Positions 3,215 through 44,265 are shown, counted from the first letter of the stretch. The stretch is 64,000 nucleotides of DNA from an uncultured Acidobacteriota bacterium (GCA_963738485.1 CAVTWK010000005.1:388690-452689); one strand, 5' to 3'. Notes: generated by a model from the letters alone, not told the origin. Translations and numbers: made by a program.

Positions 3215-6200
3215 GTGTTGGGGTCACCTGCCCTGACACAGGCGACGGTTATGCTACTAGCCGAGATGCGGTTCCTTGGCGAAGCGGTCGCCCTTTCCCC
3301 GTCTGACATCTCGAACTTTCTCTCCTGTCGCCATCGCGCCGGGTTGGACCTGGCAGTAGCGTCCAGACAGCTTGTGAGGCCGGTCTCCGATGACCCCTAT
3401 CTCGCGCTGTTGCGCAAGCGCGGGGACGATCACGAGCACGCTTACGTCGCATTCCTCCGCGCGCAGGGGAAGGGCGTGATTGACCTGAAGGACGTCGACG
3501 ATGCCGCGGAGCGAACGCGCCAGGCAATGCGAGGCGGCGCCGAGGTCGTCGTTCAGGCCCGCTTCGAGCAGGCAGGCCTGGCCGGCTTCGCGGACATTCT
3601 GCTGCGCGTCGATCGTCCCAGCGATCTTGGGACGTGGTCGTACGAGGTCCAGGACACGAAGCTCGCGAGAGACACGAAGGGCGGCACCGTCCTGCAGCTC
3701 TCGGCCTATTCGGCCCTCCTCGCGACGACTCAAGGTCTGGTGCCCGAACGATTTCAGGTCGTCACGCCCGGGATTGGCGAGGCGTTTGCCGTTCACGACT
3801 ATCGCGTCGAGCAATATGCCGCCTACTACCGCATGGTGCTGGCCGTTCTTCGCGCAGAGCTGGCGCGAGGGCAGGAGGCGATCCTCGCGGCGTACTACCC
3901 AGAACCTGTCGAGGCGTGCCCGCTGTGCGTGTGGGAAGGGCGCTGCGTCGGCATTCGCCGCAAGGACGACCACCTGTCGTTCGTCGCCGGCGCGGCACGC
4001 ACGCAGCGCGTAGAACTAGTCTCGCAAGGCTACGGCACCTTGGCCGTGGCCGCGGCCATGCCGGTCCCCGTGACCTTCACGCCCGCCCGCGGCGCTCGGC
4101 AGACCTACGACCGTCTCGGCCATCAGGCGCGCGTGCAGCACGTCCAACGCACTACCCGAACGCCTGTGGTTGAACGCCTGCCTGTGCAGCCGACCGAGGG
4201 GCTTGCCCGCCTGCCGCTGCCGTCGAGGGGTGACGTCTTCCTCGATCTCGAGGGCGCGCCATTCGCCCGCGACGACGGACGTGAGTTCTTGTTCGGCGTG
4301 TGGAGCAATGGAACCTATCGCGCGTGGTGGGCCATGGACGACATCGAAGAGCAGGCCGCCTTCGAGGCCGTGATCGATCTGATCATCGACGGCTGGGCCC
4401 GCGAGTCTGACATGCACGTCTACCACTTCAACCACTACGAGCCGACCGCCTTCAAGAAGTTGATGGGTCGGCATGTGACGCGCGGACCGGAGCTCGACCG
4501 CCTGCTTCGCGCGGACCGATTCGTCGACCTCTACCCGATCGTGCGTCAAGCCGTGCGCGCCGGCGTGGAGAGCTACTCGATTAAGCAACTCGAGCAGTAC
4601 ACGGGCTACGTCCGGCGCGTCTCGCTCGATCGCGTGCACCACGCGCTGTTCGCCGTCGAGCAGGCATTCGACGCGCGTGTCGCCGCGGCCCTTCCCGACG
4701 AGATCAAGAACCTGGTCCAGGGCTACAACGAGGACGACTGCCGATCGACGGAATCCTTGCGGGACTGGCTCGAGCGGCTGCGCGCCGAATGCGAGCGCGA
4801 GGGCATCCCGGTGCCCAGGCCCGGGGCCGCGCCCGAGGCGGCTGACAAACCGGTGCCCCCGGTCCAGCAACAGGCGCTCGCACAGCGCGGCCGACTGCTC
4901 GCGGCGGTCGAGCCCGGAGCCAGCGATCCGGGTCACCCGCAGCATGTCACGTGGCTGTTGGCCTACCTGATCGACTGGCACCGCCGTGAAGTCAATGCCG
5001 AGTGGTGGGAGTATTTCCGCCTGAAGGATCTGCCCGAAGACGAACTCCTCGATGAGCGGAAGGCCGTCTCTGGACTTCAGTTCGTCAGCCAGGTCCTTGC
5101 CGTAACCAACAAGAAAACCGGCAAGCCTACCGGTTCAGTGATTCATCGCTACGCCTATCCCGCGCAGGACTTGGAGCTCAAGGCCGACGCGACGTTGAAG
5201 CTCCAAAGTGACGAGACGTTCGGCACAGTCGATCGCCTCGATCGGGGGGCCCGGACGATCGACATCAAAAAGGGCCGGGCCATGGTCGATCGTCACCCGT
5301 CGTGTGCCTTTGCGTCAGAGGTCCGCTCCATCGACGAGTTGCAGACGTCGGTTATGCGCCTGGCAGAGCGGACGCTCGAAGGATCTGACGAGTGTGCGCT
5401 GGCGCTCCTTCGTCGCCAGGGGCCGCGGCTGCGTGCCGGCGCCTTCGCGCCCGCCGCGGGCGAGACCGCGCAGGAGTTCGCCATCCGGGTCGCTACGCAA
5501 TTGGACCGCACGACCCTGGCGATACAAGGCCCCCCGGGTGCCGGTAAGACCTTCGTGGGTGCCCAGATGATTCTCGCGCTCGTGAGGGCGGGGAAGAAGG
5601 TGGGCGTGGCGGCGACCAGCCATAAGGTCATTCGCAACCTGCTCGACGAGATCGTCACGCAGGCGGGCGCCACCAGACAGGTGGTCAGCGTTGGTGTCAA
5701 ACCGGGGGAGCCGAGCCCCGATGCTGGCGCGGTCCTCGAGTTCCACGACAACCAGACGCCCCTGGCCGCTATTGCGAGCGGTCAGATCGACGTGTTCGGT
5801 GCCACGAGGTTCTTCTGGGGACGCGAGCAATCCGCCGGTGCGGTTGACGTGCTGTTCATCGATGAGGCGGGGCAGGTGTCGCTTGCCGATGTCCTTGCCA
5901 TGGCAGCGGCAGCCGACAGCCTGGTGTTGCTCGGTGACCCGCAGCAGCTCGATCAACCACAGAAAGCCAGCCACCCCGACGGCGTCGGCGTCTCGGCACT
6001 GGAACACGTGTTGGGCGGTTTCGAGACCATGCCCCTGGACCGCGGCATCTTCCTGCCGACCACATGGCGCATGTCACCCACACTCACGGCCTTCACGTCG
6101 GAGGTGTTCTACGACCGCAAGCTCGTCGCCAAAGCGGGACTCGAGAGGCAGGCACTGCACGGGACCAGCCGGTTCGATGGGTCAAACTTGTGGGTGCTGC

Positions 6201-8978: not shown

Positions 8979-9020
8979 CCCGCCTTCGCAGGGCTGCTCG
9001 CGCCCTGCTTCGGCGGGCAA

Positions 9021-9086
9021 GCCCGCCATGCCGGCGGTTCGGCCGGCTTCGGCGCAGAGGCCCGTCATGCCGGCGGTTCGGCCGGC
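9021..9086. repeat. 39-bp-spaced direct repeat (2 copies)
   Basis: gcccgccatgccggcggttcggccggc and gcccgtcatgccggcggttcggccggc. Confidence 0.7.
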
Positions 9087-9103
9087 GAAGGCGGGCACGC
9101 CCG

Positions 9104-9820
9104 TCAGGCCGGCCGGACGAGCATCTCCTCGACGATGACTCGGGCCGGGAGCGTGAGGCAGAAGAGGACACAGTCGGCGACGTCGTCTGGCTGCATCATC
9201 CGCTCGCGGGCCTCGGCTGAGGGTGGCTGCGGCCGTCGTTCCAGAAGGGGCGTATCGATGTCGCCGGGGAAGATGGCGCACGCGCGAATGCCGCGGCCGC
9301 GTTCCTCGGCGTTGATGCTCTGCGTCAGACCGGTCAGGCCGAACTTGCTCATCACGTAACCGGGACCGGACTTGGCCGAGGCGATCTTGCCGGCATCCGA
9401 GATGATGTTGACGATGGTACCCGCGCCGGCCGCGCGCATGTGCGGGAGGACGGCCTGGGCGCAGTAGTAGGCCCCGTGCAGGTTGGTGCCGATCATCGCG
9501 TGGTAGTCGTCGAGCGAGAGCACGTCGAGTGAACGGGCCGGGACGTTGGTGCCGGCCGCGTTGACGAGGGCGTCCACGCGGCCAAAGGCCGCGTGGACGT
9601 CCTCGGCGGCGCGCGCGACGGCGGCCGCGTCGGTGATGTCGCAGGGATATGCCCGCAGCTGGCCGGCCGGTCGGCCGGCCAGCGCAATCGTCTCCGCCAG
9701 TGCGTCGGCGCGTCGCCCGAAGAGGGCGACGCGCCAGCCGCGCTCGGCGAGTTTCAGGGCGACGGCGCGGCCGACGCCGCTGCCGGCGCCGGTGACGAGA
9801 GCAGTGTGGGACTCAGACAC
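9104..9820 (-). CDS. SDR-family oxidoreductase
   Basis: Rossmann motif TGAGSGVGRA, the NAAG motif, and catalytic YVMSK (YxxxK). Confidence 0.9.
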   Translation of the reverse strand: MSESHTALVTGAGSGVGRAVALKLAERGWRVALFGRRADALAETIALAGRPAGQLRAYPCDITDAAAVARAAEDVHAAFGRVDALVNAAGTNVPARSLDVLSLDDYHAMIGTNLHGAYYCAQAVLPHMRAAGAGTIVNIISDAGKIASAKSGPGYVMSKFGLTGLTQSINAEERGRGIRACAIFPGDIDTPLLERRPQPPSAEARERMMQPDDVADCVLFCLTLPARVIVEEMLVRPA

Positions 9821-9829
9821 GGGACGATG

Positions 9830-10175
9830 ATAAACGGGCTACGGGAAACAGCCTACGGGAGACGGGCTACGGCGGACGGACGACGGGAAACAGCCTACGG
9901 CCTACGGGAGACGGGCTACGTCAGACGGCCTACGGCCTACGGCAGACGGCCTACGGCCTACGGTAGACGGCAGCCCGCGCGACAGCAGACGGGCGACGAA
10001 GCAAGGTACACGCACAGGGGGCCGGCTCGTCGAGCCGGCCCCCTGTCGTTTCCGCTGTTCCGCTGTCGATGGCCGTAGCCTGTAGGCCGTGAGCCGTCGC
10101 CCGTGGCCCGTCTGCCGTAGGCCGTAGGCCGTCTGCCGTAGGCTGTAGCCCGTAGGCGGTCTGCCGTCTCCCGTC
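9830..10175. repeat. inverted pair of heptanucleotide arrays (ACGG-type then CCGT-type) around a GC hairpin
   Basis: 9833-9985 reads ctacggg aaacagc ctacggg agacggg ctacggc... 10066-10175 reads ccgtagc ctgtagg ccgtgag ccgtcgc ccgtggc ccgtctg... The central hairpin is CAGGGGGCCGGCTCG/CGAGCCGGCCCCCTG at 10015-10045. Confidence 0.9.
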
Positions 10176-13100
10176 CTACCGTCCCAGCCAGATGTCTTCG
10201 AGCACGTTGAACGTCTGTGTGCCCACTTCGCGGCCGGCGATCGCCAGTGAGACGCGATAGACGCCCACGCCGATCCCGCCTCCGCCGCCCCCACCGAAGC
10301 CGCCGCCTCCGCCGCCACGGCCGCCACCTCCGGCGCCCGCCGTGCACGACGTCGGCGTCGCCGGTGCGGCCGGTGTCGCCGCCGGCGCGGGCGCCGCAGC
10401 CTGGCCACGACCTCCGCCGGCGCCGCCGCCTGCGCGACCCCCGCCCCCGCCGCCCGCAGGGTCGCCGGCCAACGCCCACTGGAACCGGTTGAGACCGGCG
10501 TTGCCCGTGCCGACGCACGTGCGGACGGCCTGTCCGGTCGCTGTGTTCGTGATCGTCACCCGCACTTCACCAGGCGCCGCCGCCTTCAGGTAGTAGGCGA
10601 TCGCCGTGCCGCGCGGCGCGACTTCGCCTGACCACCACTTGTCACCCGGGATCTCGGTGACGTTGAGCCGGTCGGCCTTCCACAGCACGGCCTCGCGCGG
10701 CGCGAACAGGACGTTGTCCTTGGCTACGTTCTCCGCGGTCATCTGCTGCAGCGGGGAGATGTCGTCCAGAATCCACACGCCGCGCGAGTGCGTGCCGAGA
10801 ATCAGGTCGTTGTCGCGCGGATGCACGACCACCTCGTCGATGCGGCCCTGCGGCAGGTTCGGCATGAACGATTCCCACGTCTTGCCGTCGTCGAGCGAGA
10901 CGTAGAAACCGTACTCCGTCGGCGCGTAGAGCAGGTTGCGGTTCTTCGGGTCCTGCCTGATCGAGTTGACGTTGCCCTGCGGCAGGTTGCCGGAAACCGA
11001 CGTCCACGTCGTGCCGTAGTCGGTGGTCTTGAAGATGTACGGCTTGAAGTCGTTGTTCCGCTTGCCGTCGAGGGCGATGTACGCGGTGCCCGCGTCGTAC
11101 CAGGACGCCTCGAGGCCCGAGACGTAGGTCTCGTGGTTGACGCCGGGGATGTTCTTGCCGACCTCGGTGAACGTCAGCCCGTTGTCCTTGCTCACCTGGA
11201 TGTTGCCGTCGTCAGTGCCGGCCCAGACGATGCCCGGCAGGACGGGGGACTCGGCCACCTCGGTGATCGACCCGTACTCGTTGGCGACGTAGCCGTCGTG
11301 GCGCGAGAGGATGCAGGGCTTGCCCCGATTCTGCCCGCCGCCGCCACGTCCGCCGCCCCCGCAGGCAGGCAGCCCGTACGACTGTTCGAGAATCGTGCGC
11401 TGCGTGATGTCGATGCCCTTGCCGATGTTCTGCGACATCATCCAGGACTGTCCACGATCACGCGAGATGAACAGCTGACGCCCACCCACGATGACGGTGC
11501 TGGGATTGTGGGGCGACAGCCGAATCGGCGTGTTCCAGTTGAACTGCATGATGGCGTCGGCCGGCGGCGTGTTGATCACGTTGCCGCGCCCGCCGCCACC
11601 CTGTCCGCCGCCCCCACCGCCACCGCGCCCGGCGAGACTGGGCCGGATCGACTGCGTGACGCCGGTCGAGACGTCGTACCGGTTGATGTTGCCGTTCTGC
11701 GACTCGGTGTAGAACACGTTCGGGTTGGTCGGATCGACCTGCGTCTGGAATCCGTCGCCGCCGCCCACGCTGATCCAGTTCCACTGGTGGATGCCGCCCG
11801 TTCGCGTCGAACTCGGTCCGCACCACGACCCGTTGTCCTGCAGACCGGTGCAGACCCAGTAGGGCCGCCGCATGTCGTGCGAGACGTGGTAGGACAGCGC
11901 CACGCCCCACATGCGGATCGACTCCCACCGGAGGCCGCCGTCATAGGAGACGTCGATGCCGCCGTCGTTGCCGTACATCACGTGATTGCTGTTCTGCTGA
12001 CTGATCCAGATCGCGTGGTTGTCCACGTGGCCCTGCCCGACCAGTGTCGTGAACGTCTTGCCGCCGTCCACCGACTTGCGCGGGTTGACGCCACCGACGT
12101 AGACGACGTCGGCGTTGGTGGGATCGACCCGGATCTGGCTGTAGTACATCGGGCGCTGGTTCTCGTTGGACATGAACGTCCAGGTCTTGCCCTTGTCAAT
12201 CGACCGCCAGACGCCGCTCGACTGCGGATCGGGCGCCGCGGCGGCCGCGCCGCCAGCGCGGCCGCCCCCCGCCTGCCCGCCCGCCAAAGCACCACCCCCC
12301 GCTGCCGCTGGTGCGGCGGCGGGGGCATCGGGATCCGCCTGCACGGCCGCTGATTCCTTGTCGGGCGCCACTTCAATCTGCGCGTAGATCACGTTGGGGT
12401 TCGACCGCGAGATGTCCAGGCCGATGCGCCCCATGGTGCCGCGCGGCAGACCGGTGCCCGTGACCTTCTTCCAGGTCTTGCCGCCGTCGGTGCTCTGGTG
12501 GATCCCGCTGCCGGGACCTCCGCCGACGTAGCCCCACGCCGTGCGGCGATGCTCGTACATCGCGGCCCACAGGTTGTTCGGGTTCGACGGGTCAATGACC
12601 AGGTCGGTCGCGCCCGTGTCGGGCGTGACGAACAGCGTCTTGGTCCACGTCGTGCCGCCGTTGGTGGACATGAACACGCCGCGCTCGTCGTTCGGACCAT
12701 ACAGGTGGCCGTTGGCCGCGACCCAGACGATGTTCGGGTCCTTCGGGTGGACGACAATCCGCGAGATCGACTGCGTGTCCTTGAGGCCGATGTTGACGAA
12801 CGTGATGTCCTCGGCGTTGGCCGTCGAGGCGTTCGTGCTCTTCCAGACGCCGTTGCCGAAGGAACTCGACTGCCGGTTGTTGGGCTCACCCGTGCCGACG
12901 TAGAGGATGTTGGGGTCGGTCGGCGCGAGCGCCAGATCGCCGATCGAACTGGTGCCGTGGCTGTCGAAGATCGGGTCGTAGGTCGTGCCGTTGTTGACGG
13001 TCCGCCAGATGCCACTCACCGCGAACCCGACGAAGTAGGTGAATGGCGCCTTCTCGTTGACCGCGAAGTCGTCGATACGCCCGCCCTGTCCGGTGGGACC

Positions 13101-13283
13101 AATCTCCCGCCAACGGAATCCCTGGAGGTTGGGATTGGTCGGGGCGTTCAGCATCCGCGCGGCCGGCTGCGCGGCCGGTGCCTGGGTGCGGGCCATCAGC
13201 CCGGCGACGAACGGCGAGGCCAGCACGGCTGCCCCCGCGAGAAATGCCAATCTGCTTCGATGCCGCCTTCGATCCGTCCGCAT
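10176..13283 (-). CDS. VPS10/sortilin-like BNR (Asp-box) repeat beta-propeller protein with Gly-rich inserts
   Basis: 1035 aa with a signal peptide. Asp-box-like S.DGG.TW motifs repeat (STNGGTTWTK, STDGGKTWKK, SIDKGKTWTF, SVDGGKTFTT, SYDGGLRWES, SLDDGKTWES). The frame is intact. Confidence 0.85.
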   Translation of the reverse strand: MRTDRRRHRSRLAFLAGAAVLASPFVAGLMARTQAPAAQPAARMLNAPTNPNLQGFRWREIGPTGQGGRIDDFAVNEKAPFTYFVGFAVSGIWRTVNNGTTYDPIFDSHGTSSIGDLALAPTDPNILYVGTGEPNNRQSSSFGNGVWKSTNASTANAEDITFVNIGLKDTQSISRIVVHPKDPNIVWVAANGHLYGPNDERGVFMSTNGGTTWTKTLFVTPDTGATDLVIDPSNPNNLWAAMYEHRRTAWGYVGGGPGSGIHQSTDGGKTWKKVTGTGLPRGTMGRIGLDISRSNPNVIYAQIEVAPDKESAAVQADPDAPAAAPAAAGGGALAGGQAGGGRAGGAAAAAPDPQSSGVWRSIDKGKTWTFMSNENQRPMYYSQIRVDPTNADVVYVGGVNPRKSVDGGKTFTTLVGQGHVDNHAIWISQQNSNHVMYGNDGGIDVSYDGGLRWESIRMWGVALSYHVSHDMRRPYWVCTGLQDNGSWCGPSSTRTGGIHQWNWISVGGGDGFQTQVDPTNPNVFYTESQNGNINRYDVSTGVTQSIRPSLAGRGGGGGGGQGGGGRGNVINTPPADAIMQFNWNTPIRLSPHNPSTVIVGGRQLFISRDRGQSWMMSQNIGKGIDITQRTILEQSYGLPACGGGGRGGGGQNRGKPCILSRHDGYVANEYGSITEVAESPVLPGIVWAGTDDGNIQVSKDNGLTFTEVGKNIPGVNHETYVSGLEASWYDAGTAYIALDGKRNNDFKPYIFKTTDYGTTWTSVSGNLPQGNVNSIRQDPKNRNLLYAPTEYGFYVSLDDGKTWESFMPNLPQGRIDEVVVHPRDNDLILGTHSRGVWILDDISPLQQMTAENVAKDNVLFAPREAVLWKADRLNVTEIPGDKWWSGEVAPRGTAIAYYLKAAAPGEVRVTITNTATGQAVRTCVGTGNAGLNRFQWALAGDPAGGGGGGRAGGGAGGGRGQAAAPAPAATPAAPATPTSCTAGAGGGGRGGGGGGFGGGGGGGIGVGVYRVSLAIAGREVGTQTFNVLEDIWLGR

Positions 13284-13347
13284 ACACCTCTCCTTGACTC
13301 GGTCTTCCCGCTGAATTGGGGTGGGTGGCCGCTTAAGGGGCCCTCCG

Positions 13348-13374
13348 GGTGGGCTGATATTACATCAGCCCACC
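13348..13374. other. perfect 11-bp stem / 5-nt loop hairpin
   Basis: GGTGGGCTGAT attac ATCAGCCCACC, between the BNR-gene start and the heptamer arrays. Confidence 0.6.
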
Positions 13375-13583
13375 GGCTACGGCAGACAGACGACGGTCTA
13401 CGGGAGACGGTCTACGGCACGGGGCCGACAGCAGACAGGCGACGGCAGAACACGGGAGATGGCTGGCGACTGGCGGCCGCAGGCTGTTGCCGCTGTAGGC
13501 CGTGGGCTGTTGTCGCCCGTTTGCCGTCGCCCGTCCGCCGTAGCCTGTTGGCTGTTTGCTGTTGCCCGTTTGCCGTCTGCCGA
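13375..13583. repeat. inverted pair of heptanucleotide arrays
   Basis: 13375-13470 is ACGG-type (ctacggc agacaga cgacggt ctacggg agacggt ctacggc). 13490-13583 is CCGT-type (ccgctgt aggccgt gggctgt tgtcgcc cgtttgc cgtcgcc...). The pair abuts the M23 stop codon. Confidence 0.85.
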
Positions 13584-15003: not shown

Positions 15004-16323
15004 ATGGTCTCGACGCCGGGTACGTCCAGGTTGTCTCCGAATACCAGCACCGTTCTGTCGATCATCATGGGCGGCGGGGCCGGCACGCGCCTGTTTCCGC
15101 TCACCAAGGAACGCGCCAAGCCCGCGGTGCCGCTCGCCGGCAAGTACCGGCTCGTGGACATCCCGATCTCCAACTGCATCAACTCGGATCTGCGGCGCAT
15201 CTACCTGCTGACCCAGTTCAACTCGGCGTCCCTGCACCGGCACATGGCGCAGTCCTACAAGTTCGACCATTTCACGAGCGGGTTCGTCGAAATTCTCGCG
15301 GCCGAACAGACGCACGGCGACACATCCTGGTACCAGGGCACGGCCGACGCCGTCCGCAAGAACCTCGTCCATTTCCTCGACCACGACTTCGAGTACGTGC
15401 TCATCCTGAGCGGCGACCAGCTCTACCGCATGGACTTCCGCGAGGTCATCGGCCAGCACGTCGCGAGCGGCGCCGAACTGACGGTCGCGACCATCCCGGT
15501 GATGCGCCGCGAGGCGTCGCAGCTCGGCATCATGCAGATCAATCGCGATCGGCGCATCACGCGCTTCGTCGAGAAACCCAAGGACGAAGCCTTGCAGGCC
15601 AGCCTCGCCCTGCCCGAGGACATGTACGCGCCGCTCGGACTGGCGCGCGACAGCGAGGACCGCCTGCTCGCCTCCATGGGCATCTACGTCTTCAACCGGG
15701 ACGTGCTGCTCAAGCTCCTCGACAACGATTTCACCGATTTCGGCAAGCACATCATCCCCGGGGCCATCGACACGCATCGCGTGTTCTCGTACGTCTTCCA
15801 CGGCTACTGGGAGGACATCGGGACCATCCGGGCCTTCTTCGAAGCCAACCTCGATGTGGCTTCGGACCTGCCGCGCTTCAACTTCTTCGACATGTCAGCG
15901 CCGATCTTCACCAGGCCGCGCTTGCTGCCGGCGTCGAAGATCAACGGCGCCCAGATCGACCACGGCGTGATCTCGGACGGCTGCATCCTGAGCCAGACCG
16001 TCATCCAGCAGTCGGTCGTCGGCATCCGCAGCGTGCTCTCGCCCGGGAGCAAGCTCTACCGGACCATCATGCTCGGCAGCGATTTCTACGAGTCAGAGTG
16101 GTCGATCGCCGAACACGAGGCCGTCGGCGCGCCACGGATCGGCATCGGCAGCAACACGCGGATCGAGAACGCCATCATCGACAAGAACGCCCGCATCGGC
16201 AACGACGTCGTCATCACGCCGAACGGCAAACCCGAGAACATGGACGCCGCGTCCTTCTACATCCGCGACGGCATCGTCATCATCCCGAAGAACGGCGTGG
16301 TCCCTCACGGGACGGTGATCTGA
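15004..16323 (+). CDS. glgC: glucose-1-phosphate adenylyltransferase
   Basis: IIMGGGAGTRLFPLTKERAKPAVPLAGKYRLVDIPISNCINS, followed by a left-handed beta-helix C-terminus. ATG at 15004. Confidence 0.9.
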   Translation: MVSTPGTSRLSPNTSTVLSIIMGGGAGTRLFPLTKERAKPAVPLAGKYRLVDIPISNCINSDLRRIYLLTQFNSASLHRHMAQSYKFDHFTSGFVEILAAEQTHGDTSWYQGTADAVRKNLVHFLDHDFEYVLILSGDQLYRMDFREVIGQHVASGAELTVATIPVMRREASQLGIMQINRDRRITRFVEKPKDEALQASLALPEDMYAPLGLARDSEDRLLASMGIYVFNRDVLLKLLDNDFTDFGKHIIPGAIDTHRVFSYVFHGYWEDIGTIRAFFEANLDVASDLPRFNFFDMSAPIFTRPRLLPASKINGAQIDHGVISDGCILSQTVIQQSVVGIRSVLSPGSKLYRTIMLGSDFYESEWSIAEHEAVGAPRIGIGSNTRIENAIIDKNARIGNDVVITPNGKPENMDAASFYIRDGIVIIPKNGVVPHGTVI

Positions 16324-16420
16324 CGACGGGCTACGGCAGACGGGCTACGGTAGACGGGAGACAGCCCACGGCCTACGGCCGACAGGCCCACGGCCCCCCG
16401 GCCACGATAACGGGGCGACG
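16324..16420. repeat. heptanucleotide array, ACGG-type, about 12 units
   Basis: gacgggc tacggca gacgggc tacggta gacggga gacagcc cacggcc tacggcc gacaggc ccacggc. It fills the gap between the convergent glgC and kinase stop codons. Confidence 0.8.
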
Positions 16421-22119: not shown

Positions 22120-22290
22120 ATCCTCGCGTCGAGCTTCGCCCCACGTCGGCTCCGCGGTGAGCCCAGCCCTACTTCCTCCGAGGCCTCCGTGGTGAGCCCC
22201 GTGTCTGGCTCTGCGTGCTCCGTGAGCTCCGCGGTGAGCCCGTGTTCTGCTCCGCTCGCTCCGTAATCCCCGCGGTGAACCCGAAGGGCT
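22120..22290. repeat. CTCCG(C/T)GGTGA(G/A)CCC repeats x4
   Basis: gctccgcggtgagccc, cctccgtggtgagcccc, gctccgcggtgagcccg and ccccgcggtgaaccc at about 35-40 bp spacing, between the convergent rnd and permease stops. Confidence 0.7.
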
Positions 22291-24435: not shown

Positions 24436-24526
24436 ACAGAGCATACAGCCTACGGGAGACGGTCTACTGCCTGCGGTAGACCGTCTACAGCCTACCGTAG
24501 CCGGTAGCCCGTTGACCGTCTCCCGT
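24436..24526. repeat. short heptamer-family segment with internal hairpin
   Basis: cagcctacgggagacggtctac tgcctgcg gtagaccgtctacagcctaccgtagccggtagcccgttgaccgtctcccgtc. The stem is GAGACGGTCTAC/GTAGACCGTCT. Confidence 0.7.
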
Positions 24527-24919
24527 CTAACGCACTCGTCTGTCCGACTCGACGAGGATCACCGCGCCGGTGATCGGCAGCTTGATCAGCGCGCCGAGCG
24601 GGCCGAGGTTCAATGCGTCGCGCACCGTGCCGACGACGCGCACGTCGGCGCCACGGCGCGGCACGCCGCGTTCGGAGACGACCCAGATCTGCGCCGGATC
24701 GATCGCCACCCGGTAGGCGCCGCGATTGCCGACCGAGTAGCTGTCCACGACGCGGCCGCTGATCTGAACGTCGCTGTTCCGGTAGCGATACGGATCGTCG
24801 AGGACATGCGAGATGCGCCGGCTGGCGCAAGCCGTCGCGCCCAGCGCCACGAGGAACGCCAACGTGGTGAGACCGACCGCACGCCTGAAGGGCGAGGAGG
24901 CAATCGAAGGGGCTGACAT
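24527..24919 (-). CDS. small lipoprotein, hypothetical
   Basis: ATG 24919 gives MSAPSIASSPFRRAVGLTTLAFLVALGATAC, which is lipobox-like. The rest is beta-rich sequence, possibly OB-fold-like. Confidence 0.6.
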   Translation of the reverse strand: MSAPSIASSPFRRAVGLTTLAFLVALGATACASRRISHVLDDPYRYRNSDVQISGRVVDSYSVGNRGAYRVAIDPAQIWVVSERGVPRRGADVRVVGTVRDALNLGPLGALIKLPITGAVILVESDRRVR

Positions 24920-25027: not shown

Positions 25028-25465
25028 CGGGGACGTCGTGGACTTCTGCGACGCTCCGGGACTGCGGCGTGATTGCCGGGGTCTCCAGCGTCCGTGCAGC
25101 CCGTCGGCACCTCAAGTCTCTTTCACTCCCGCACTTCGGCGTCAATGCCAGCACTTGAGCGACAGTTCCCGCACCTCTGCGCGAACTCCAGCACTTCAGG
25201 CGCGGTCCCGGCCTCCAGCGTCAGTTTCGGGACCTGAGCGTCAGCCTGCACCTCAGCGTCAGGTCCAGCACTTCTGCGTCAGGACCAGCACTTCAGCGCC
25301 GGCCCCGGACTAGGGCGTCAGCCTGCACTTCACCGTCAGGACCAGCACATCAGCCGCGGTCCCGGACTTCAGCGTCAGCCCTGCACTTCACGTGCTTGTC
25401 AGGCCAGCACTTCGCGCGGAGCGCGAAGCACTTCGAGCCCTTTTCACCCAGCACTTCCCGCGTCA
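25028..25465. repeat. array of about 21 units at about 20-bp spacing, core (C)CNG(C/G)AC(T/C)TC(A)GCGTCAG
   Basis: ACTTC-type cores fall at about 25042, 25061, 25109, 25133, 25153, 25173, 25193, 25211, 25232, 25250, 25270, 25290, 25309, 25327, 25347, 25366, 25385, 25409, 25430 and 25454. Confidence 0.8.
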
Positions 25466-25469
25466 GCGC

Positions 25470-28258
25470 CTATTGTGCCGGCCGATAGATCCGCACGTTC
25501 TGAATCTGCAACGGTCCGAGTCCTGCCGCCGCCGCCGTCAGCGTGATGCGCACGAACTTCGCGTTCGTCGGTGAGAACGAAGCCGTCGTGATCGTCGAGA
25601 CCGTGCCTTTCGAGCAGCGGCTGACTCCAGGTCTTGCCGTCCGTGGAGGTCTGCACCTGGAACTCGCGCAGGACCGACGGGCGCGGCGGGTGCCGCCGGT
25701 GGTGCCCCCGCGGCTGGTGCCCCCGCCGCCGGTGGCGCGCCACCACCACGCGCACCGCCCCCGCGACCGCCGCCCGGGGCGTTGAACTGCACCTCCGAGA
25801 TGCGCATCGCCTGCGGCAGTTCGACCTGCACCCACATGCCCGGCACCTGCGGCTCAGCCGACGTCCACCCGATGATCGTCAGCGCCCGGTCGGCCGCCGC
25901 CGTGTTGTGGCTGGCGGACGCCTTCCACGTCTGCTCGATCGGCAACAGCACCGGCAGTGCCGTCGCGATTTCCGGCGCCGTCCACGGCGTCTTGCGATTC
26001 ACGCTCGCGGCCCGCACACGCGCGACGTCCTCCGGGGTGACGAAGGACCCGGTGTTGCCGAAGTCGTTGCGCACGTAGGAGGCGATCGCCGCGACCCAGT
26101 CGTCCTTCTGCGCGCCCATCGGCACCATGACGTTGGTGAACGTCTTGTCGTCGAGCGGCCCGGTCAGGCCGTGCAGCAGCACCTTGATCACATAGTCGCG
26201 ATGGCCCTGCACGCGTGGCGAACCGGCGAGCGACGGACCCATCATCGTGCCCGGCGCCGCGCCGGCCATGGGCGCGCCTCGGCCATCATCGCCATGGCAC
26301 GAGAAGCAGACCTCGCGGTAAATCGTGCCGCCGCGCTGCAACTGGTCCTGCTCGGCAGGGTTGATGCCTGCCGCGCCGCGTCCGCGCGCGCCGGCCGCGA
26401 GCATCAGCTTGCCGATCTCCTGGATCCCGCGCGACTTGTTGGCCTCCATCGTCGCCTGGATGACGGCGGGCGCATCCGCGACCTTCAGCACGTTGATCGT
26501 GAGGATGCCCTGCAGCGCGACGTCCACGTCGCTGTCCTTCGTCGCCGCGCGATAATCGGCGTCGAACGAGCGGTCGCCCTGCTTGTACAGCGTCTCGCTG
26601 GCGCGGATCGCCTGGATGCGCATGCGTGGATTCGGGTCCTTCATGGACGCGCGGACCAGCGCGGCGTCGAGTGCGCCCAGGCCTTCGAGCGTCCACATCG
26701 CGTGGAACCTGGCGAGCAGATTGGTCGATGACGTCGCCATCGTCCGCAGCGCCGGGACGACGGACCTGTCCTGTCGCAAGACGAGCGTGCGCTGCGCGGT
26801 GTCTCGCCACCAGCCGTTGGCGTGGGTGAGGTGCTGCACGAGCTGCGTAGGCGTCTCGCTGTACATCCTCGGCTTCGTCATGTCGAGCGCGATGGCGGGG
26901 AGCGCGGGCTGTCCGGGAATCGGCCGGCTCGCCGCGGGGCCAACCGGGATGCCGGGGAACTCGGGCGTGCCGTCGAAGCGCAGTCGCCAGATGCGGCCGT
27001 GGTGAATGACTTTGTCGAGCTGGTACTGGAAGATCTTGTGGCGCAGATACGAGTTGGCGCGCGTCCACTCGCCTTCCTGGATGATGCCGCGATACATGTC
27101 CGCGATGTAGACGGTGCCATCGGGCGCCGTCTTGATGTTCACCGGCCGGAACAGCGGATCGGAGCTGAGGATGAACTCGGACTTCGGATACACGTTCTTG
27201 AGCTGGGTCAGCCCGTCGGTCTTCACGATGTCCGTGCGCCGGATCAGCCGACCGACCGGCTCGGTGTAGAGCAGGTCGCCGATCAGATCCTCGGGGACGC
27301 GGTGGCCACGCACCATGTCCTGACCGCCGGTCGCGGTTGCGTGATTGACCACGCCTGTCGGGACGCGCACGCGGCTCATGCCGCCCTGCATGTCGCCCAG
27401 GCCGACGATCGGCCAGACGATGTCGAACTCGGGTTCGTATTCGTCGGCGATGCGGTAGGCGCCGTACTGGATCGGCACCTGGAAGTTCAGCGGGCCGCGC
27501 TCGCAGCCCGCGCACGTGAACCACATCTTGCCGTCGTCGTCCTGCGTCAGGCCCCACTGGCCGCCGTTCGAGCCGGTGGCTTCGCGGATGATGCCGGTCG
27601 GCGTCCAGCGGAAGCGGAACGAGTTGTAGGTGCTGTAGATCCAGTTGTCGAGGCCCCAGACGAACCCGCTCTGTTCGTGCTCGAGGTTGCCGTCACGGCC
27701 GATGCCGACGCCGCTGTAGAAGATCTCGCGCTTGTCTGCCACGCCGTCGCCGTTGGTGTCCGTCAGCTTGATCACGTCGTCGGACGCGGTCTCGTTGGTC
27801 AGGATGGAGTTGGCGTCGAGCGGCAGCACCATCCGCGGCAGCACGAGCTTGTCGGCGAAGACGACCTTCTTGTCGAACGTGCCGTCGCCGTTGGTATCTT
27901 CCCAGCGGCTGATGCGGCTTTCCGGCGCGTGCTGGTTGGTGCCCTCGACGTCAGGCATGTAGGTGACGAACTCGCAGATGTACATGCGACCCAGGCCGTC
28001 GAACTCGATGACCGCGGGCGTATCGATGTCCGGGTCGGAGAGGACCAGCTCCATGCGGTAGCCCGGCGGGAGCAGGAACGTCTTCGCCTGCTCGGCAGCG
28101 GTCTTGGCCTTGATCGGATCCTTCGGGCCGAAGTCTGCGCGCGTGGACGGAATCAGCGGGTAGGGCTGCGACTGACCGAGCATCGAGATGCTCGCGACAC
28201 TGACCAGGCCAAGGGCCAGCATCCAGACACGGGGGCGCGACGAGGGGCTGAGGCGCAT
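25470..28258 (-). pseudogene. PVC-type membrane-bound-dehydrogenase-like heme-binding protein with C-terminal discoidin-like domain; 3' end frameshifted
   Basis: Signal/anchor MRLSPSSRPRVWMLALGLV. It has a dehydrogenase-like propeller region, HEAT-like repeats and the cytochrome c motif CFSCHGDDG. The last ~70 codons (SVLREFQVQTSTDGKTWSQPLLE, then GTVSTITTASFSPTNAKFVRITLTAAAAGLGPLQIQNVRIYRPAQ*) sit in two other frames, with joins near 25683 and 25609. Confidence 0.75.
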
Positions 28259-28330
28259 GACTGCACGTCTCCTAGAGGAATCCGATCGAACAGGATTCGA
28301 TATGGAACCGATTCCATCAAGTTCTAGCAC

Positions 28331-29030
28331 AACAGACGGCGGACAGCCTACGGTGGACGGCTCACGGACGACGGCTCACGGGCTACGGCGGACAGGCTAC
28401 CGCCGACGGCCTACGGGCCACGGCTCACAGGCTACGGCAGACAGACGACGGCTCACCAGCTACGGCCTACGGCAAACAGGCTACAGACGACGGACGACGG
28501 ACGACGGGGGACGGCAGACAGAACACGGCTCACCGGCTACGGACGACGGCCAACAGGCTACGGACGACCGCCTACGGCCTACGGCCCACAGATACGGACG
28601 ACGGACCACCGCAGACGGGCTACGGTGGACGATCGCGGCTCACTGGCTACTGCCTACGGCTCACGGGCTACCGCAAACAGGTTACAGACGACGGACGACG
28701 GGAGACCGCAGGCCGGCTCCGGTGGACAGCAAACGGCTCACGGGCGACGGCAGACGGACGACGGCTCACGGGCTACTGCCGACAGAACACGGCAGACAGG
28801 CTACGGACGACGACGGACGACGGGAGACAGCCTACGGCGGACGGCTCACGGGCTACTGCGGACAGCAGACGGCTCACGGGCTACTGCCTCACGGCAAACA
28901 GGCTTCGGACGACGGACGACGGACGAAGGACGACAGGCTACCGGGGACTACGGCAGACGGGCCACGGCGGACGGGCTACGGCCTACGGCACACAGGGTAC
29001 GGACGGGAGACAGACGACCTGCGGTTCACG
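28331..29030. repeat. heptanucleotide array, ACGGNNN orientation, about 100 units
   Basis: It parses in register as acggcgg acagcct acggtgg acggctc acggacg acggctc acgggct acggcgg... with only occasional 1-nt register slips. Confidence 0.9.
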
Positions 29031-29039
29031 GCATAGGTG

Positions 29040-29160
29040 TGGACCTGGACGTCAGCTCCGGGACTTGCGCGAGCGTAGCGAAGCTGCGGGACTTCAGCGT
29101 CAGTTCCGGGACTTCTGCGAAGCCTGAGAAGTGAGGCGAAGCCCCCGGGACTTCTGTCCC
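29040..29160. repeat. GGGACTTC-core repeat cluster (4 units)
   Basis: ctccgggacttgcgcgagc..., gctgcgggacttcagcgtcag, ttccgggacttctgcgaagcc, cccccgggacttctg. It lies directly beside the big heptamer array. Confidence 0.75.
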
Positions 29161-35301: not shown

Positions 35302-35347
35302 GGGGTCAGACCGGGGTCAGACCATGGTCTGACCCCGGTCTGACCCC
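35302..35347. repeat. perfect 46-bp palindrome (2x GGGGTCAGACC, AT centre, 2x GGTCTGACCCC)
   Basis: ggggtcagaccggggtcagaccatggtctgaccccggtctgacccc, in the divergent hicB / ECF sigma intergenic region. Confidence 0.85.
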
Positions 35348-39168: not shown

Positions 39169-39265
39169 GTCGTGAGGACCTCGGCGAGGAGTCGGACACC
39201 GCATGTGCCCGCTCATAGGGATTCGCGCGGTCCTACGGGTTCGAAGCCACCGGGGTTACAGGGGG

Positions 39266-39503
39266 CTCCCGTCTCCCGTCGCCATAAGGTCGCCCGTTGG
39301 CGGTTGCTCGTGTAGCCCGTCGCCCGTGGGCTGTGGTCTGACCCTGGTCGTCCGTCGCCCGTTTGCGGTACCCGGCAGCCCGTCGTCCGTCGTCCGTCGT
39401 CGGTCGTGCGTGGGCCGCAGGCCGTCTCCCGTGGGCCGTCTTCCGTAGCCCGTCTGCCGTCTCCCGTCTCCCGTCCGTAACCACCCTCCGTCACCGCCCG
39501 TAG
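39266..39503. repeat. heptanucleotide array, CCGT-type, about 34 units
   Basis: ctcccgt ctcccgt ... gcccgtc gtccgtc gtccgtc gtcggtc gtgcgtg ggccgca ggccgtc tcccgtg ggccgtc ttccgta gcccgtc tgccgtc tcccgtc tcccgtc. Confidence 0.85.
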
Positions 39504-42448: not shown

Positions 42449-43810
42449 ATGATTGAGAGACACGCACGGGGGCCGGCGCCGGTTGGCGCCTTCCCCGTGC
42501 GTGTGGCACGCTCGCGCGTCGTCTCCGCCATTCTCGTCGCCGCCCTCGTCAGCCTCACATCCCGTCCGCACGCCCAGCGCACCACGATCGCGCCAGCCGA
42601 CCTGTCAGGCCAGTGGGAGACCGAGCACGTCTCGGCCCCTGTCTCGGCGTTGTTCGACCACGCCGCCCTGAAACAGATCATCGCTGCCCTGCCGTCCTCC
42701 GGGCCGATTCGTACGACCCAGGTCGGCTCGTCGCTCGAAGGACGCGAGATCTGGGACGTCACCTTCGGCACCGGCGCCACGACCGTGTTGATGTGGTCGC
42801 AGATGCACGGCGACGAGGCCACGGCGACCTCGACGCTCATCGACCTCTACGCCTGGATTGGGCGCCATGCGGCCGAGCCCGCTGTGCGCCAGCTCCTGGC
42901 TGCCCTCACCGTGCACACCGTGCCCATGCTCAATCCGGACGGCGCCGAACGCTGGCAGCGCCGCAACGCCCAGGGGCTCGATCTCAACCGCGACGCCCTG
43001 CTTCTGCAGGGCCCCGAGTCGCAGCTGCTGAAGGGGCTGCGCGATCGCCTGGAGCCGGCCGTCGGCTTCAACCTCCACAACCAGAACTGGCGCACCTCGG
43101 TCGGCGATCCACCGCAGGCCGCGGCGATCTCGCTGCTCTCGGTGGCCGGCGACGAGGCGCGGACGATGACGCCTGGCCGCGTCCTGACGAAGAAGCTGGG
43201 GGCGGTCATCCGCGACGCGCTCGAACCATGGGCGGCCGGGCGGATGGGCCGCTACGACGACAGCTTCGAGGTGCGCGCCTTCGGCGACAACCTCACGAAG
43301 TGGGGCACGCCCGTCCTGCTCATCGAGACAGGGCCCTGGCCGGCCGTCGATCCCGACCCGATGCTCGTGAAGCTCAACTTCATTGCGCTCGTCACGGCCC
43401 TGCAGGCGCTGGCCGACGGCGGGCCCGGCGGTGCGCTCGACCGCGCGGACCCGGCCCGCTACGACTCGCTGCCCGAGAACGACTCGCGCCTGCTGCACAC
43501 GATCATCCGGAACGTGACCATCATCACGCGCGAGGGCGCGGCGCCCTTTGTCGGCGACGTGGGCCTGATCGCGACGCGCCGCGTCCGGACCGACGACGGC
43601 GTGCGGCGGCTGGCGCAGTCGTTCGCGATCGATGACCTCGGCGACCTGCGCACGCTGGGTGCGCTCTTCGAGGTGGACGGCACCGGCCTCCGCCTTGCGC
43701 CTGCGGGCGCCACGCCGTTGCTGCCCAGCCAGCCCGCGGACCTGGTCCTGACGGGCCCCGACGGCACGGTGGTGCGCCGGTTCCAGGCCGAGACGGTCTC
43801 ACGGCCTTAG
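42449..43810 (+). CDS. M14-family zinc carboxypeptidase
   Basis: WSQMHGDEATAT (HxxE zinc motif), VPMLNPDGAERWQRRNAQGLDLNRD, and a signal-like N-terminus. Confidence 0.8.
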   Translation: MIERHARGPAPVGAFPVRVARSRVVSAILVAALVSLTSRPHAQRTTIAPADLSGQWETEHVSAPVSALFDHAALKQIIAALPSSGPIRTTQVGSSLEGREIWDVTFGTGATTVLMWSQMHGDEATATSTLIDLYAWIGRHAAEPAVRQLLAALTVHTVPMLNPDGAERWQRRNAQGLDLNRDALLLQGPESQLLKGLRDRLEPAVGFNLHNQNWRTSVGDPPQAAAISLLSVAGDEARTMTPGRVLTKKLGAVIRDALEPWAAGRMGRYDDSFEVRAFGDNLTKWGTPVLLIETGPWPAVDPDPMLVKLNFIALVTALQALADGGPGGALDRADPARYDSLPENDSRLLHTIIRNVTIITREGAAPFVGDVGLIATRRVRTDDGVRRLAQSFAIDDLGDLRTLGALFEVDGTGLRLAPAGATPLLPSQPADLVLTGPDGTVVRRFQAETVSRP

Positions 43811-44265
43811 CGCCCGGGACCTGGCCGAAAGCACCGGGACTTCGCGCGGAGCCGGGCGGGGCGAGGCGAAGCCTCCGGGACTTGAGCGAGCGAAGCGAGC
43901 AGCCGGAACCTGGGCGAAGCACCGGGACTTCGCGCGAAGCGAAGCGAAGCCTCCGGGACTTCAACGAGCGCAGCGAGCGCCCGGAACCTGGGCGAGAGGC
44001 ACCGGGACTTCCTGCGGAGCCGGGCGAGGTGAGGCGAAGCCTCCGGGACTTCAACGAGCGCAGCGAGCGCCCGGAACCTGGGCGAGAGGCACCGGGACTT
44101 CCGTGCGGAGCCGGGCGAGGTGAGGCGGAGCCTCCGGGACTTCAACGAGCGCAGCGAGCACCCGGGACCTGGGCGAGAGGCGCCGGGACTTCCGTGCGGA
44201 GCGGGTTGGCGAGGCGAAGCCTCCCCGACTTCCGCGGTGCGGGACCGGCTTTCCGGCCTCGGGTT
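43810..44265. repeat. tandem repeat, about 90-bp unit x about 5
   Basis: The unit is GCCCGGAACCTGGGCGAGAG GCACCGGGACTTCCTGCGGAGCCGGGCGAGGTGAGGCGAA GCCTCCGGGACTTCAACGAGCGCAGCGAGC. CCGGRACCTGG anchors fall at about 43813, 43903, 43980, 44070 and 44161. Confidence 0.85.

Follow-up and report, generated by a model that had tools for sequence, protein, structure and literature searches.

The spacer between the BNR and SDR genes

The window, by which we mean the whole 64-kb stretch of DNA that was analysed, contains at 9821-10175 an intergenic spacer running from the stop codon of a BNR-repeat protein gene to the start codon of a short-chain dehydrogenase (SDR) gene, both on the minus strand. The spacer holds an array of NNNACGG heptamers, a perfect hairpin and an array of CCGTNNN heptamers, and together with its flanking genes it is made up of the following parts.

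9104..9820, minus strand: downstream gene, adh_short SDR (short-chain dehydrogenase) with a GTG start, Pfam match from residue 6
9831..9985, plus strand: left array of NNNACGG heptamers, 20 units in one register over 9831-9970, then degenerate
10014-10029 / 10031-10046, no strand assigned: central perfect inverted repeat, ACAGGGGGCCGGCTCG / CGAGCCGGCCCCCTGT, 16-nt arms around a 1-nt centre, 100% complementary
10050..10066, plus strand: short direct repeat, TTCCGCTG x2, between the hairpin and the right array
10066..10178, minus strand: right array, CCGTNNN on the plus strand and NNNACGG on the minus strand, 15 in-register units over 10073-10177
10176..13283, minus strand: upstream gene, Sortilin-Vps10/BNR repeat protein (Pfam)

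The genes were called with a simple GC3 heuristic that misses genes and calls open reading frames through arrays; counts of spacers by type across loci that depend on it are left aside here. In outline, this anatomy agrees with the preliminary description of the locus: array, hairpin and array do fill the spacer from the BNR stop to the SDR start, Pfam returns the flanking genes that had been named, and the two arrays are opposed in orientation and built from the same unit types. The details needed revision. The left array had been given as about 22 units of NNACGGN at 9833-9985; heptamers of this type are real, and 20 of them stand in register from 9831 to 9970 (exact ACGG core in 17 of the 20, ACAG in two and ACGT in one), followed by decay up to about 9998. 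TRF finds periods of 7, 14 and 21 in this array, and 11 nt separate its 5' end from the SDR start codon. The CCGTNNN units of the right array are equally real, the number in register being 15 (10073-10177) rather than about 16 (10066-10175); the CCGT core is exact in 12 of the 15 units, and the array takes in the TAG stop codon (10176-10178) of the BNR gene. The hairpin, described with 15-nt arms at 10015-10045, is indeed perfect, with arms of 16 nt at 10014-10046.

The central hairpin is GC-rich, has a predicted energy of about -39 kcal/mol and lies 130 nt past the BNR stop. The central segment occurs as a single copy in the 64-kb window and gave no blastn match among plasmids. A consensus terminator scan called no hairpin with a T-run at 10014-10046, the tail on the sense (minus) strand, GCGUGUACCUUGCUUCG, being devoid of a U-run, and a consensus promoter scan made no call at the hairpin. 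Against Rfam, nothing in the whole window reached the gathering threshold, and the region 9700-10300 gave chance-level matches only (E = 0.28-0.38, far under the gathering scores). No direct repeats or target-site duplications border the element. At its SDR side (9821-9835, minus strand), a TATCAT stands 6 nt 5' of the GTG, where a recognisable Shine-Dalgarno sequence is missing; the SDR mRNA may be leaderless, with its -35 region placed within the array, where the consensus scan made no call.

The 345-bp imperfect palindrome is genuine. When folded against dinucleotide-shuffled controls, the check that the preliminary description had proposed, the spacer (9821-10175) is far more stable than its shuffles as minus-strand RNA (-233.6 kcal/mol, z = -12.1), as plus-strand RNA (-244.8 kcal/mol, z = -13.6) and as DNA (-137.4 kcal/mol, z = -12.0), and none of the shuffled sequences equalled the real fold energy in any of the three foldings. 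With z scores of -12 to -13.6, the very long, mismatched stem with the GC hairpin as its cap is thus predicted much as it had been proposed. The specificity of the stem did not hold up. Many different registers give a complementarity of 71-85% between the arms, and permuting the order of units in one arm left the pairing practically unchanged, both over whole units (86 matches observed vs 84.4 +/- 2.3; p = 0.29) and over the variable triplets only (p = 0.57), so that the test of the focal arms for mirrored order was negative and gave no sign of a stem evolved pair by pair. Because permuted unit orders pair equally well, the stem is a register-free outcome of two facing arrays of the same family, and with the unit order unmirrored between the arms it can pair in many registers; the complementarity is generic (p = 0.3-0.57) rather than that of a specific stem.

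The two arms are nevertheless hardly strangers to each other. Both carry a 21-nt higher-order repeat, CAGACGG-CCTACGG-CCTACGG, that is specific to this locus and absent from the other arrays, and 21% of their 14-mers are common to both, as against at most 9% when the right arm is compared with each of the other arrays and zero between the arms of the other two inward pairs of the window. The common repeat and 14-mers hint that the arms are of common descent or were copied from arm to arm, which would count against fully independent arrays.

Two further parts of the earlier proposal stand only in a narrower form. Of the long stem suggested for extruded DNA, only the perfect central repeat would make a realistic cruciform, judging from what is generally known of cruciform extrusion, since the arrays are about 75% complementary and at least 87 nt apart. 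The stem suggested for a transcript is predicted to zip; on the transcribed minus strand, however, the 3' arm lies downstream of the hairpin, and therefore, if the hairpin terminates transcription, the anatomy would allow the long RNA stem in read-through transcripts only.

A family of heptamer arrays in the window

The palindrome is not the dedicated single structure that the preliminary description implied. It belongs to a family of 7-base tandem repeats in the intergenic gaps of a soil acidobacterium, a family that is presumably genome-wide in this organism; a TRF search combined with a phase-chain scan placed it in at least six intergenic regions of the 64-kb window, namely three inward-pointing pairs and three single arrays, the latter half of a single orientation and unfolded. 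Besides the focal pair, the arrays are the following, each with the z score of its fold.

13370..13583, no strand assigned: second inward pair, ACGG at about 13376-13417 and CCGT at about 13490-13582; z = -4.5
16320..16400, plus strand: single ACGG array that begins with the glgC stop codon, TGA (16323); z = +0.5, unstructured
24440..24529, no strand assigned: third inward pair, filling a 93-bp spacer between two minus-strand genes; z = -4.8
28333..29010, plus strand: single ACGG array of about 700 bp (about 100 units); z = +0.8, unstructured
39260..39482, minus strand: single array with CCGT on the plus strand; z = +1.9, unstructured

As the paired arrays fold and the single arrays do not, hairpin formation belongs to the paired arrangement and not to the family in general. 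The 147 units yield the consensus S-M-K-A-C-G-G, the first three positions being variable and the A-C-(G)-G nearly invariant (frequencies of 0.98 for A at position 4, 1.00 for C at 5, 0.78 for G at 6 and 0.99 for G at 7); the commonest units are CCTACGG, GCTACGG, ACGACGG and CAGACGG. Such arrays are not expected by chance: the longest in-phase chains of ACGG and CCGT count 24 and 12 units, as against three in 200 first-order Markov simulations of the window, and the 13 in-phase chains of at least four units compare with none in the same simulations.

The arrays are placed closely against genes. They begin 0-3 nt after the stop codons of four genes, those of the BNR protein, glgC, an M23 peptidase and the gene ending at 24527; the stop of the last, TAG, forms the first three nucleotides of a TAGACGG unit, and the pair at 13370..13583 begins 1-3 nt from the M23 peptidase stop (13584). 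Two of the single arrays lie elsewhere, the longest one (28333..29010) immediately 5' of the start region of a DUF7133/cytochrome c gene and that at 39260..39482 in the divergent spacer between a thioredoxin gene (minus strand) and an ECF sigma factor gene (plus strand). Wherever an array end abuts a gene, at a stop or a start, it is the 5' end of the ACGG strand (nine of nine ends checked), and it follows that all three pairs of the window point inward. At the focal locus the array appears to have overwritten the 3' end of the BNR gene (10176-10190), as the protein ends in WLGR*, departing from the WLNEK* of nine of ten Vicinamibacterales orthologues (WLGER* in the closest relative), and its last codons, GGA CGG TAG, read as array units. 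The ACGG strand is without stop codons; hence a spurious 282-aa open reading frame runs through the long array (28188-29036, plus strand), one that annotation pipelines could call as a repeat protein.

Some other repeats of the window may be recorded here. An 11-bp hairpin, GGTGGGCTGAT attac ATCAGCCCACC, lies at 13341-13369 between the CCGT array of the second pair and the BNR start with its Shine-Dalgarno sequence, outside its array pair and not central to it. A second intergenic repeat family, always on the plus strand, is built around CCGGGACTTC at 29040-29160, 43811-44250 and 25127-25390 (23 matches at up to one mismatch vs 6.9 expected); to it belongs a 91-nt unit, present in 3.2 copies at 93% identity immediately past the stop codon of the gene that ends at 43810. 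Further intergenic tandem repeats occur at 9007-9113 (39 nt x2.7, in the convergent spacer that follows the SDR gene), at 22185-22283 (41 nt x2.4) and at 35304-35347 (GGTCAGACCCC x4).

An inverted-repeat organisation at many sites could recall a mobile element, either a MITE with the arrays as its terminal inverted repeats or a RAYT-mobilised element of the REP/BIME type, and the commonest unit (CCGTAGG) even holds a GTAG tetranucleotide. We rejected this reading as scarcely credible. The central segment is unique in the window, the arrays are heterogeneous, with a length and unit order that differ at each site, there are no target-site duplications, the units are non-palindromic, and no Y1 transposase (RAYT) was matched by Pfam among the 18 window proteins scanned, which are part of the window's proteins. 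Nor do we give much weight to G-quadruplex formation, as proposed for the GGGAATC heptamers of Xanthomonas and the GGGGAYT heptamers of Nostoc. While the period, the spacer location, the proximity to stop codons and the convergent pairs all match that type, the unit here has GG only, the focal arms are nearly balanced in G and C, and the motif (G3+ N1-7)x3 G3+ is absent from every array-bearing spacer of the window, which makes this explanation very improbable.

The orthologous spacer in related genomes

In a species-level genome collection, the best matches of the BNR protein, at up to 75% identity, lie in metagenome-assembled genomes of Vicinamibacterales (Acidobacteriota), and for this reason we assign the window to that order. 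ACGG heptamer arrays were found at none of 37 related loci. In the related pair L038/L039 (78% identity), about six ACGG-type units follow the same stop codon directly; an inverted arm is missing there, and a Uma2 gene is inserted alongside. In more distant Vicinamibacterales the spacer after the BNR gene is convergent, being shared with an MBL-fold hydrolase gene, and contains a palindrome in every case; typically, this is a terminator-like palindrome between inverted arrays of differing, species-specific units of 7-10 nt.

L011 spacer: (GGGGTTCC)x12.6, hairpin and T-run, (GGAACCCC)x11.8; the arrays abut both stop codons
L009 spacer: 9-mer arrays flanking the orthologous hairpin and T-run; the arrays abut both stop codons
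L003 spacer: (GGCAGAA)n / (TTCTGCC)n
L010 spacer: (AGGGCAA)n / (TTGCCCT)n
L001, L005, L007 and L008 spacers: similar arrangements
L004 spacer: a plain hairpin and T-run, nothing more

The hairpins and T-runs of L009 and L011 are orthologous, and the arrays around them consist of 9-mers and 8-mers. Adjacent spacers of the same Vicinamibacterales genomes carry other, unrelated units of 7-10 nt. Under one strict TRF criterion, about 14 inverted array pairs were found in about 234 kb of Vicinamibacterales/Acidobacteriota loci, as against two in the remaining, lower-identity loci, which come from Gemmatimonadota, Bacteroidota and other groups. Inverted pairs with the G-rich arm first occur in Kapaibacterium (L017, 1063-1226) and Haliscomenobacter (L029, 6615-6743), so the layout reaches beyond Acidobacteriota and is merely much commoner there in this sample. 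Units with a GGTTCC/GGAACC core (GGGGTTCC, TGGGGTTCCT, GGTTCCGG, CGGGTTCGA) recur in four Vicinamibacterales genomes (L001, L009, L011 and L033); some unit families therefore cross species, and the ACGG family does not.

NNNACGG units are also met in viral sequences, at least six of them in each of 97 viral contigs, most of which hold homogeneous single-unit repeats unlike the element of the window. One contig alone resembles it, L089 (IMG/VR UViG 3300037421_000001, GC 0.67), a putative viral or prophage contig with a window-like layout at 4954-5175: a stop codon is followed by an array of ACGG/ACAG heptamers, a centre and a CCGT array, after which comes the next gene, with its Shine-Dalgarno sequence and ATG.

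The variety of units bears on a role at the level of DNA, in which the heptads would bind a nucleoid-associated or ribbon-helix-helix-type protein, or a cruciform would organise supercoiling or replication. The omega repressor of pSM19035, which binds heptad iterons, provides an analogue. A near-invariant 4-bp A-C-G-G core at a strict 7-bp spacing with three variable positions is what such binding might look like, arrays occur also in spacers that contain promoters, and cruciform extrusion would be possible for the perfect central repeat. Against this, related genomes use units of 7, 8, 9 and 10 nt, several of them unrelated and in neighbouring spacers, a variety of unit and period that fits poorly to one DNA-binding protein, and the polarity of the arrays relative to gene ends suggests a strand-specific process, one of RNA or of single-stranded DNA. 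We thus regard a DNA-level role as distinctly unlikely.

The polarity is rather strict also within pairs. In 22 of 23 pairs, not all of them independent as some share genome and unit family, the excess of G over C is greater in the 5' arm than in the 3' arm; by purine content, 14 of the 23 are purine-first, two pyrimidine-first and seven neutral. In the focal arms, G and C are almost balanced. The sole pair reversed on both measures lies at 10047-10145 of L060 (an IMG/VR viral contig, GC 0.49), where a pyrimidine-rich CCGTTRT array precedes a TAACGGT array between divergent gene starts. The polarity of the pairs, purine- or G-rich 5' and pyrimidine- or C-rich 3', matches the A-tract and U-tract of a bidirectional terminator.

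Another view of the locus is that the whole 345-bp palindrome evolved under selection, with the arrays extending the stem of the terminator for very efficient bidirectional termination and protection of 3' ends. Several points are in its favour: the extreme predicted stability, the sequence of array, hairpin and inverted array kept at the orthologous spacer in about nine Vicinamibacterales species with the units differing each time, the G-rich arm coming first in all pairs but one, C-rich units with T-runs of their own in several relatives (e.g. GCCCTTT and CTGCCTT), and the locus-specific higher-order repeat shared by the focal arms. Others stand against it. The unit order is unmirrored; long, partnerless single arrays of the same family exist, one of them in a divergent spacer; the closest relative, L038, is without the second arm and has about six units, pointing to rapid loss; and the 3' arm lies beyond the putative point of termination. 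On this evidence, selection of the palindrome as a whole is unlikely.

Tandem arrays around a probable terminator

The account that we prefer, with a probability of roughly 0.6 overall and with its functional part the weakest, is that heptamer arrays generated by slippage, each anchored at a gene boundary, flank a terminator. The single-copy GC hairpin most likely separates the BNR and SDR genes as a terminator or insulator; termination at a hairpin without a U-run is plausible for a high-GC bacterium. The arrays, to go by comparison of the related sequences, represent a fast-evolving, lineage-specific family of tandem repeats, and in the relatives such pairs are shown to enclose what would be genuine terminators. 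Rapid turnover of the arrays is indicated by L038, which is 78% identical and has only its few units, and by the other 7-10-nt units of the distant Vicinamibacterales.

Under this account, the arrays would have arisen and grown by replication slippage, to which the over-abundance of heptamer repeats in bacterial genomes is usually ascribed (cited in PMC4692102 and in PMC4679880). The deletion bias of bacteria would strip away unconstrained spacer, which would explain why the arrays lie flush with coding sequence, and only the inward-pointing, terminator-like polarity would be tolerated or favoured. The stem of 110-150 nt would then be mostly a by-product of two arrays of the same family facing each other and not something selected pair by pair. 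Any effect would be on RNA that reads through the central hairpin: the arms could zip up in many registers into a long imperfect duplex, and this might act as a back-up block to read-through, as a substrate for a double-strand-specific RNase or, in the manner of REP/BIME action in E. coli, as a protector of the 3' end of the upstream RNA. Slippage alone fails to explain why one unit family dominates all the spacers of the window or why the G-rich arm is nearly always 5'.

Much of this has been seen before in other bacteria, where intergenic heptamer repeats have been noted since 1990, beginning with the cyanobacterial STRR; those of Xanthomonas were characterised in 2015. Xanthomonas genomes have about 185 arrays of GGGAATC (GGGNATC) heptamers each, with 70-75 convergent inverted pairs (Rehm et al. 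2015, PLoS One, PMC4692102); the mean distance of the arrays from the ORF on their 5' side is 28 nt, overlap with its stop codon is frequent, and array length varies between species, with a preference for four units (PMC4692102). The likeness to our window is close and covers every positional and organisational feature of the Xanthomonas type: dispersed heptamers in tandem, conserved in the core and variable at other positions, a strong intergenic bias, a location nearest to the ORF on the 5' side (28 nt on average there, 0-3 nt here), convergent inverted pairs with stem-loop potential (three inward pairs here) and array lengths that differ between related species. The family fails only the mechanistic feature proposed for that type, the G-quadruplex. 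Unlike those of Xanthomonas, the present repeats belong to the Acidobacteriota (Vicinamibacterales), have an SMKACGG unit without a G-quadruplex motif, form arrays of up to about 100 units (about 700 bp) instead of preferring four, and in the focal pair flank a strong GC hairpin, while the related genomes swap units and periods (7-10 nt) at the orthologous spacer.

Other known systems are more distant. The cyanobacterial STRR and the TAACTGA repeats of Beggiatoaceae are likewise abundant, lineage-specific intergenic tandem heptamers (PMC4679880). The Beggiatoaceae repeats stand mainly just 5' of start codons in 2-6 copies, a single inverted set being reported (PMC4679880), and Nostoc has few paired repeats (PMC4692102); unlike the arrays of the window, these systems have no association with terminator hairpins. 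REP elements are extragenic, located in 3' UTRs and between convergent genes, and form RNA hairpins by which read-through is limited and the mRNA 5' of them is stabilised, one such element of E. coli acting as terminator and stabiliser at once (bioRxiv 10.64898/2026.03.23.713779). By analogy, the focal element is likely to work in a REP/BIME-like way. It is not a member of that family, however: REP/BIME are imperfect palindromes of 20-40 nt in alternating orientation, linked to RAYT, whereas the window has non-palindromic 7-mers in long direct arrays. With an intrinsic bidirectional terminator the element has in common the GC-rich hairpin 3' of a stop codon, and the orthologous spacers of L004, L009 and L011 have the canonical hairpin and T-run; it differs in that the window hairpin is without a U-run on the sense strand and that the arrays add more than 100 nt on each side, beyond any described stem.

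Among open-access papers and preprints, none was found that describes repeats of this kind in Vicinamibacteria or elsewhere in the Acidobacteriota, and in the literature on inverted tandem repeats around terminators, of the same scope, the layout was not found described. Within those sources, two arrays pointing inward around a terminator-like hairpin is a layout previously described only in Xanthomonas. What is new, then, is the inward-array layout in a second, unrelated phylum, the behaviour of one orthologous spacer, where units are replaced between species and the layout is kept (flush arrays around a terminator-like centre, with the G-rich arm 5'), and the indication that the final codons of a gene can be lost to an array. 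The G-quadruplex, the sole concrete proposal for heptamer repeats, cannot apply to the window family. On the practical side, such arrays break short-read assemblies and generate spurious stop-free ORFs.

The single palindrome is explained by the above, and the part worth pursuing is the clade-wide pattern, with its kept architecture, replaced units and fixed polarity. The question of heptamer repeats becomes testable with it, as one of polarity and architecture and not of a particular motif. A more far-reaching reading, tentative and in our estimate still on the unlikely side, is that these are zipper-like terminators or insulators of Vicinamibacterales, and perhaps of Xanthomonas and others, in which the architecture is conserved, the sequence is free and the G-rich arm is always 5'. 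Selection on RNA or a directional process of repeat building would re-create the layout with new 7-10-nt units in each species, possibly as polymerase stalls at the hairpin and the G-rich nascent strand expands on both sides. If this reading is true, the focal element, far from being repeat debris, would be a module with a function and the capacity to evolve.
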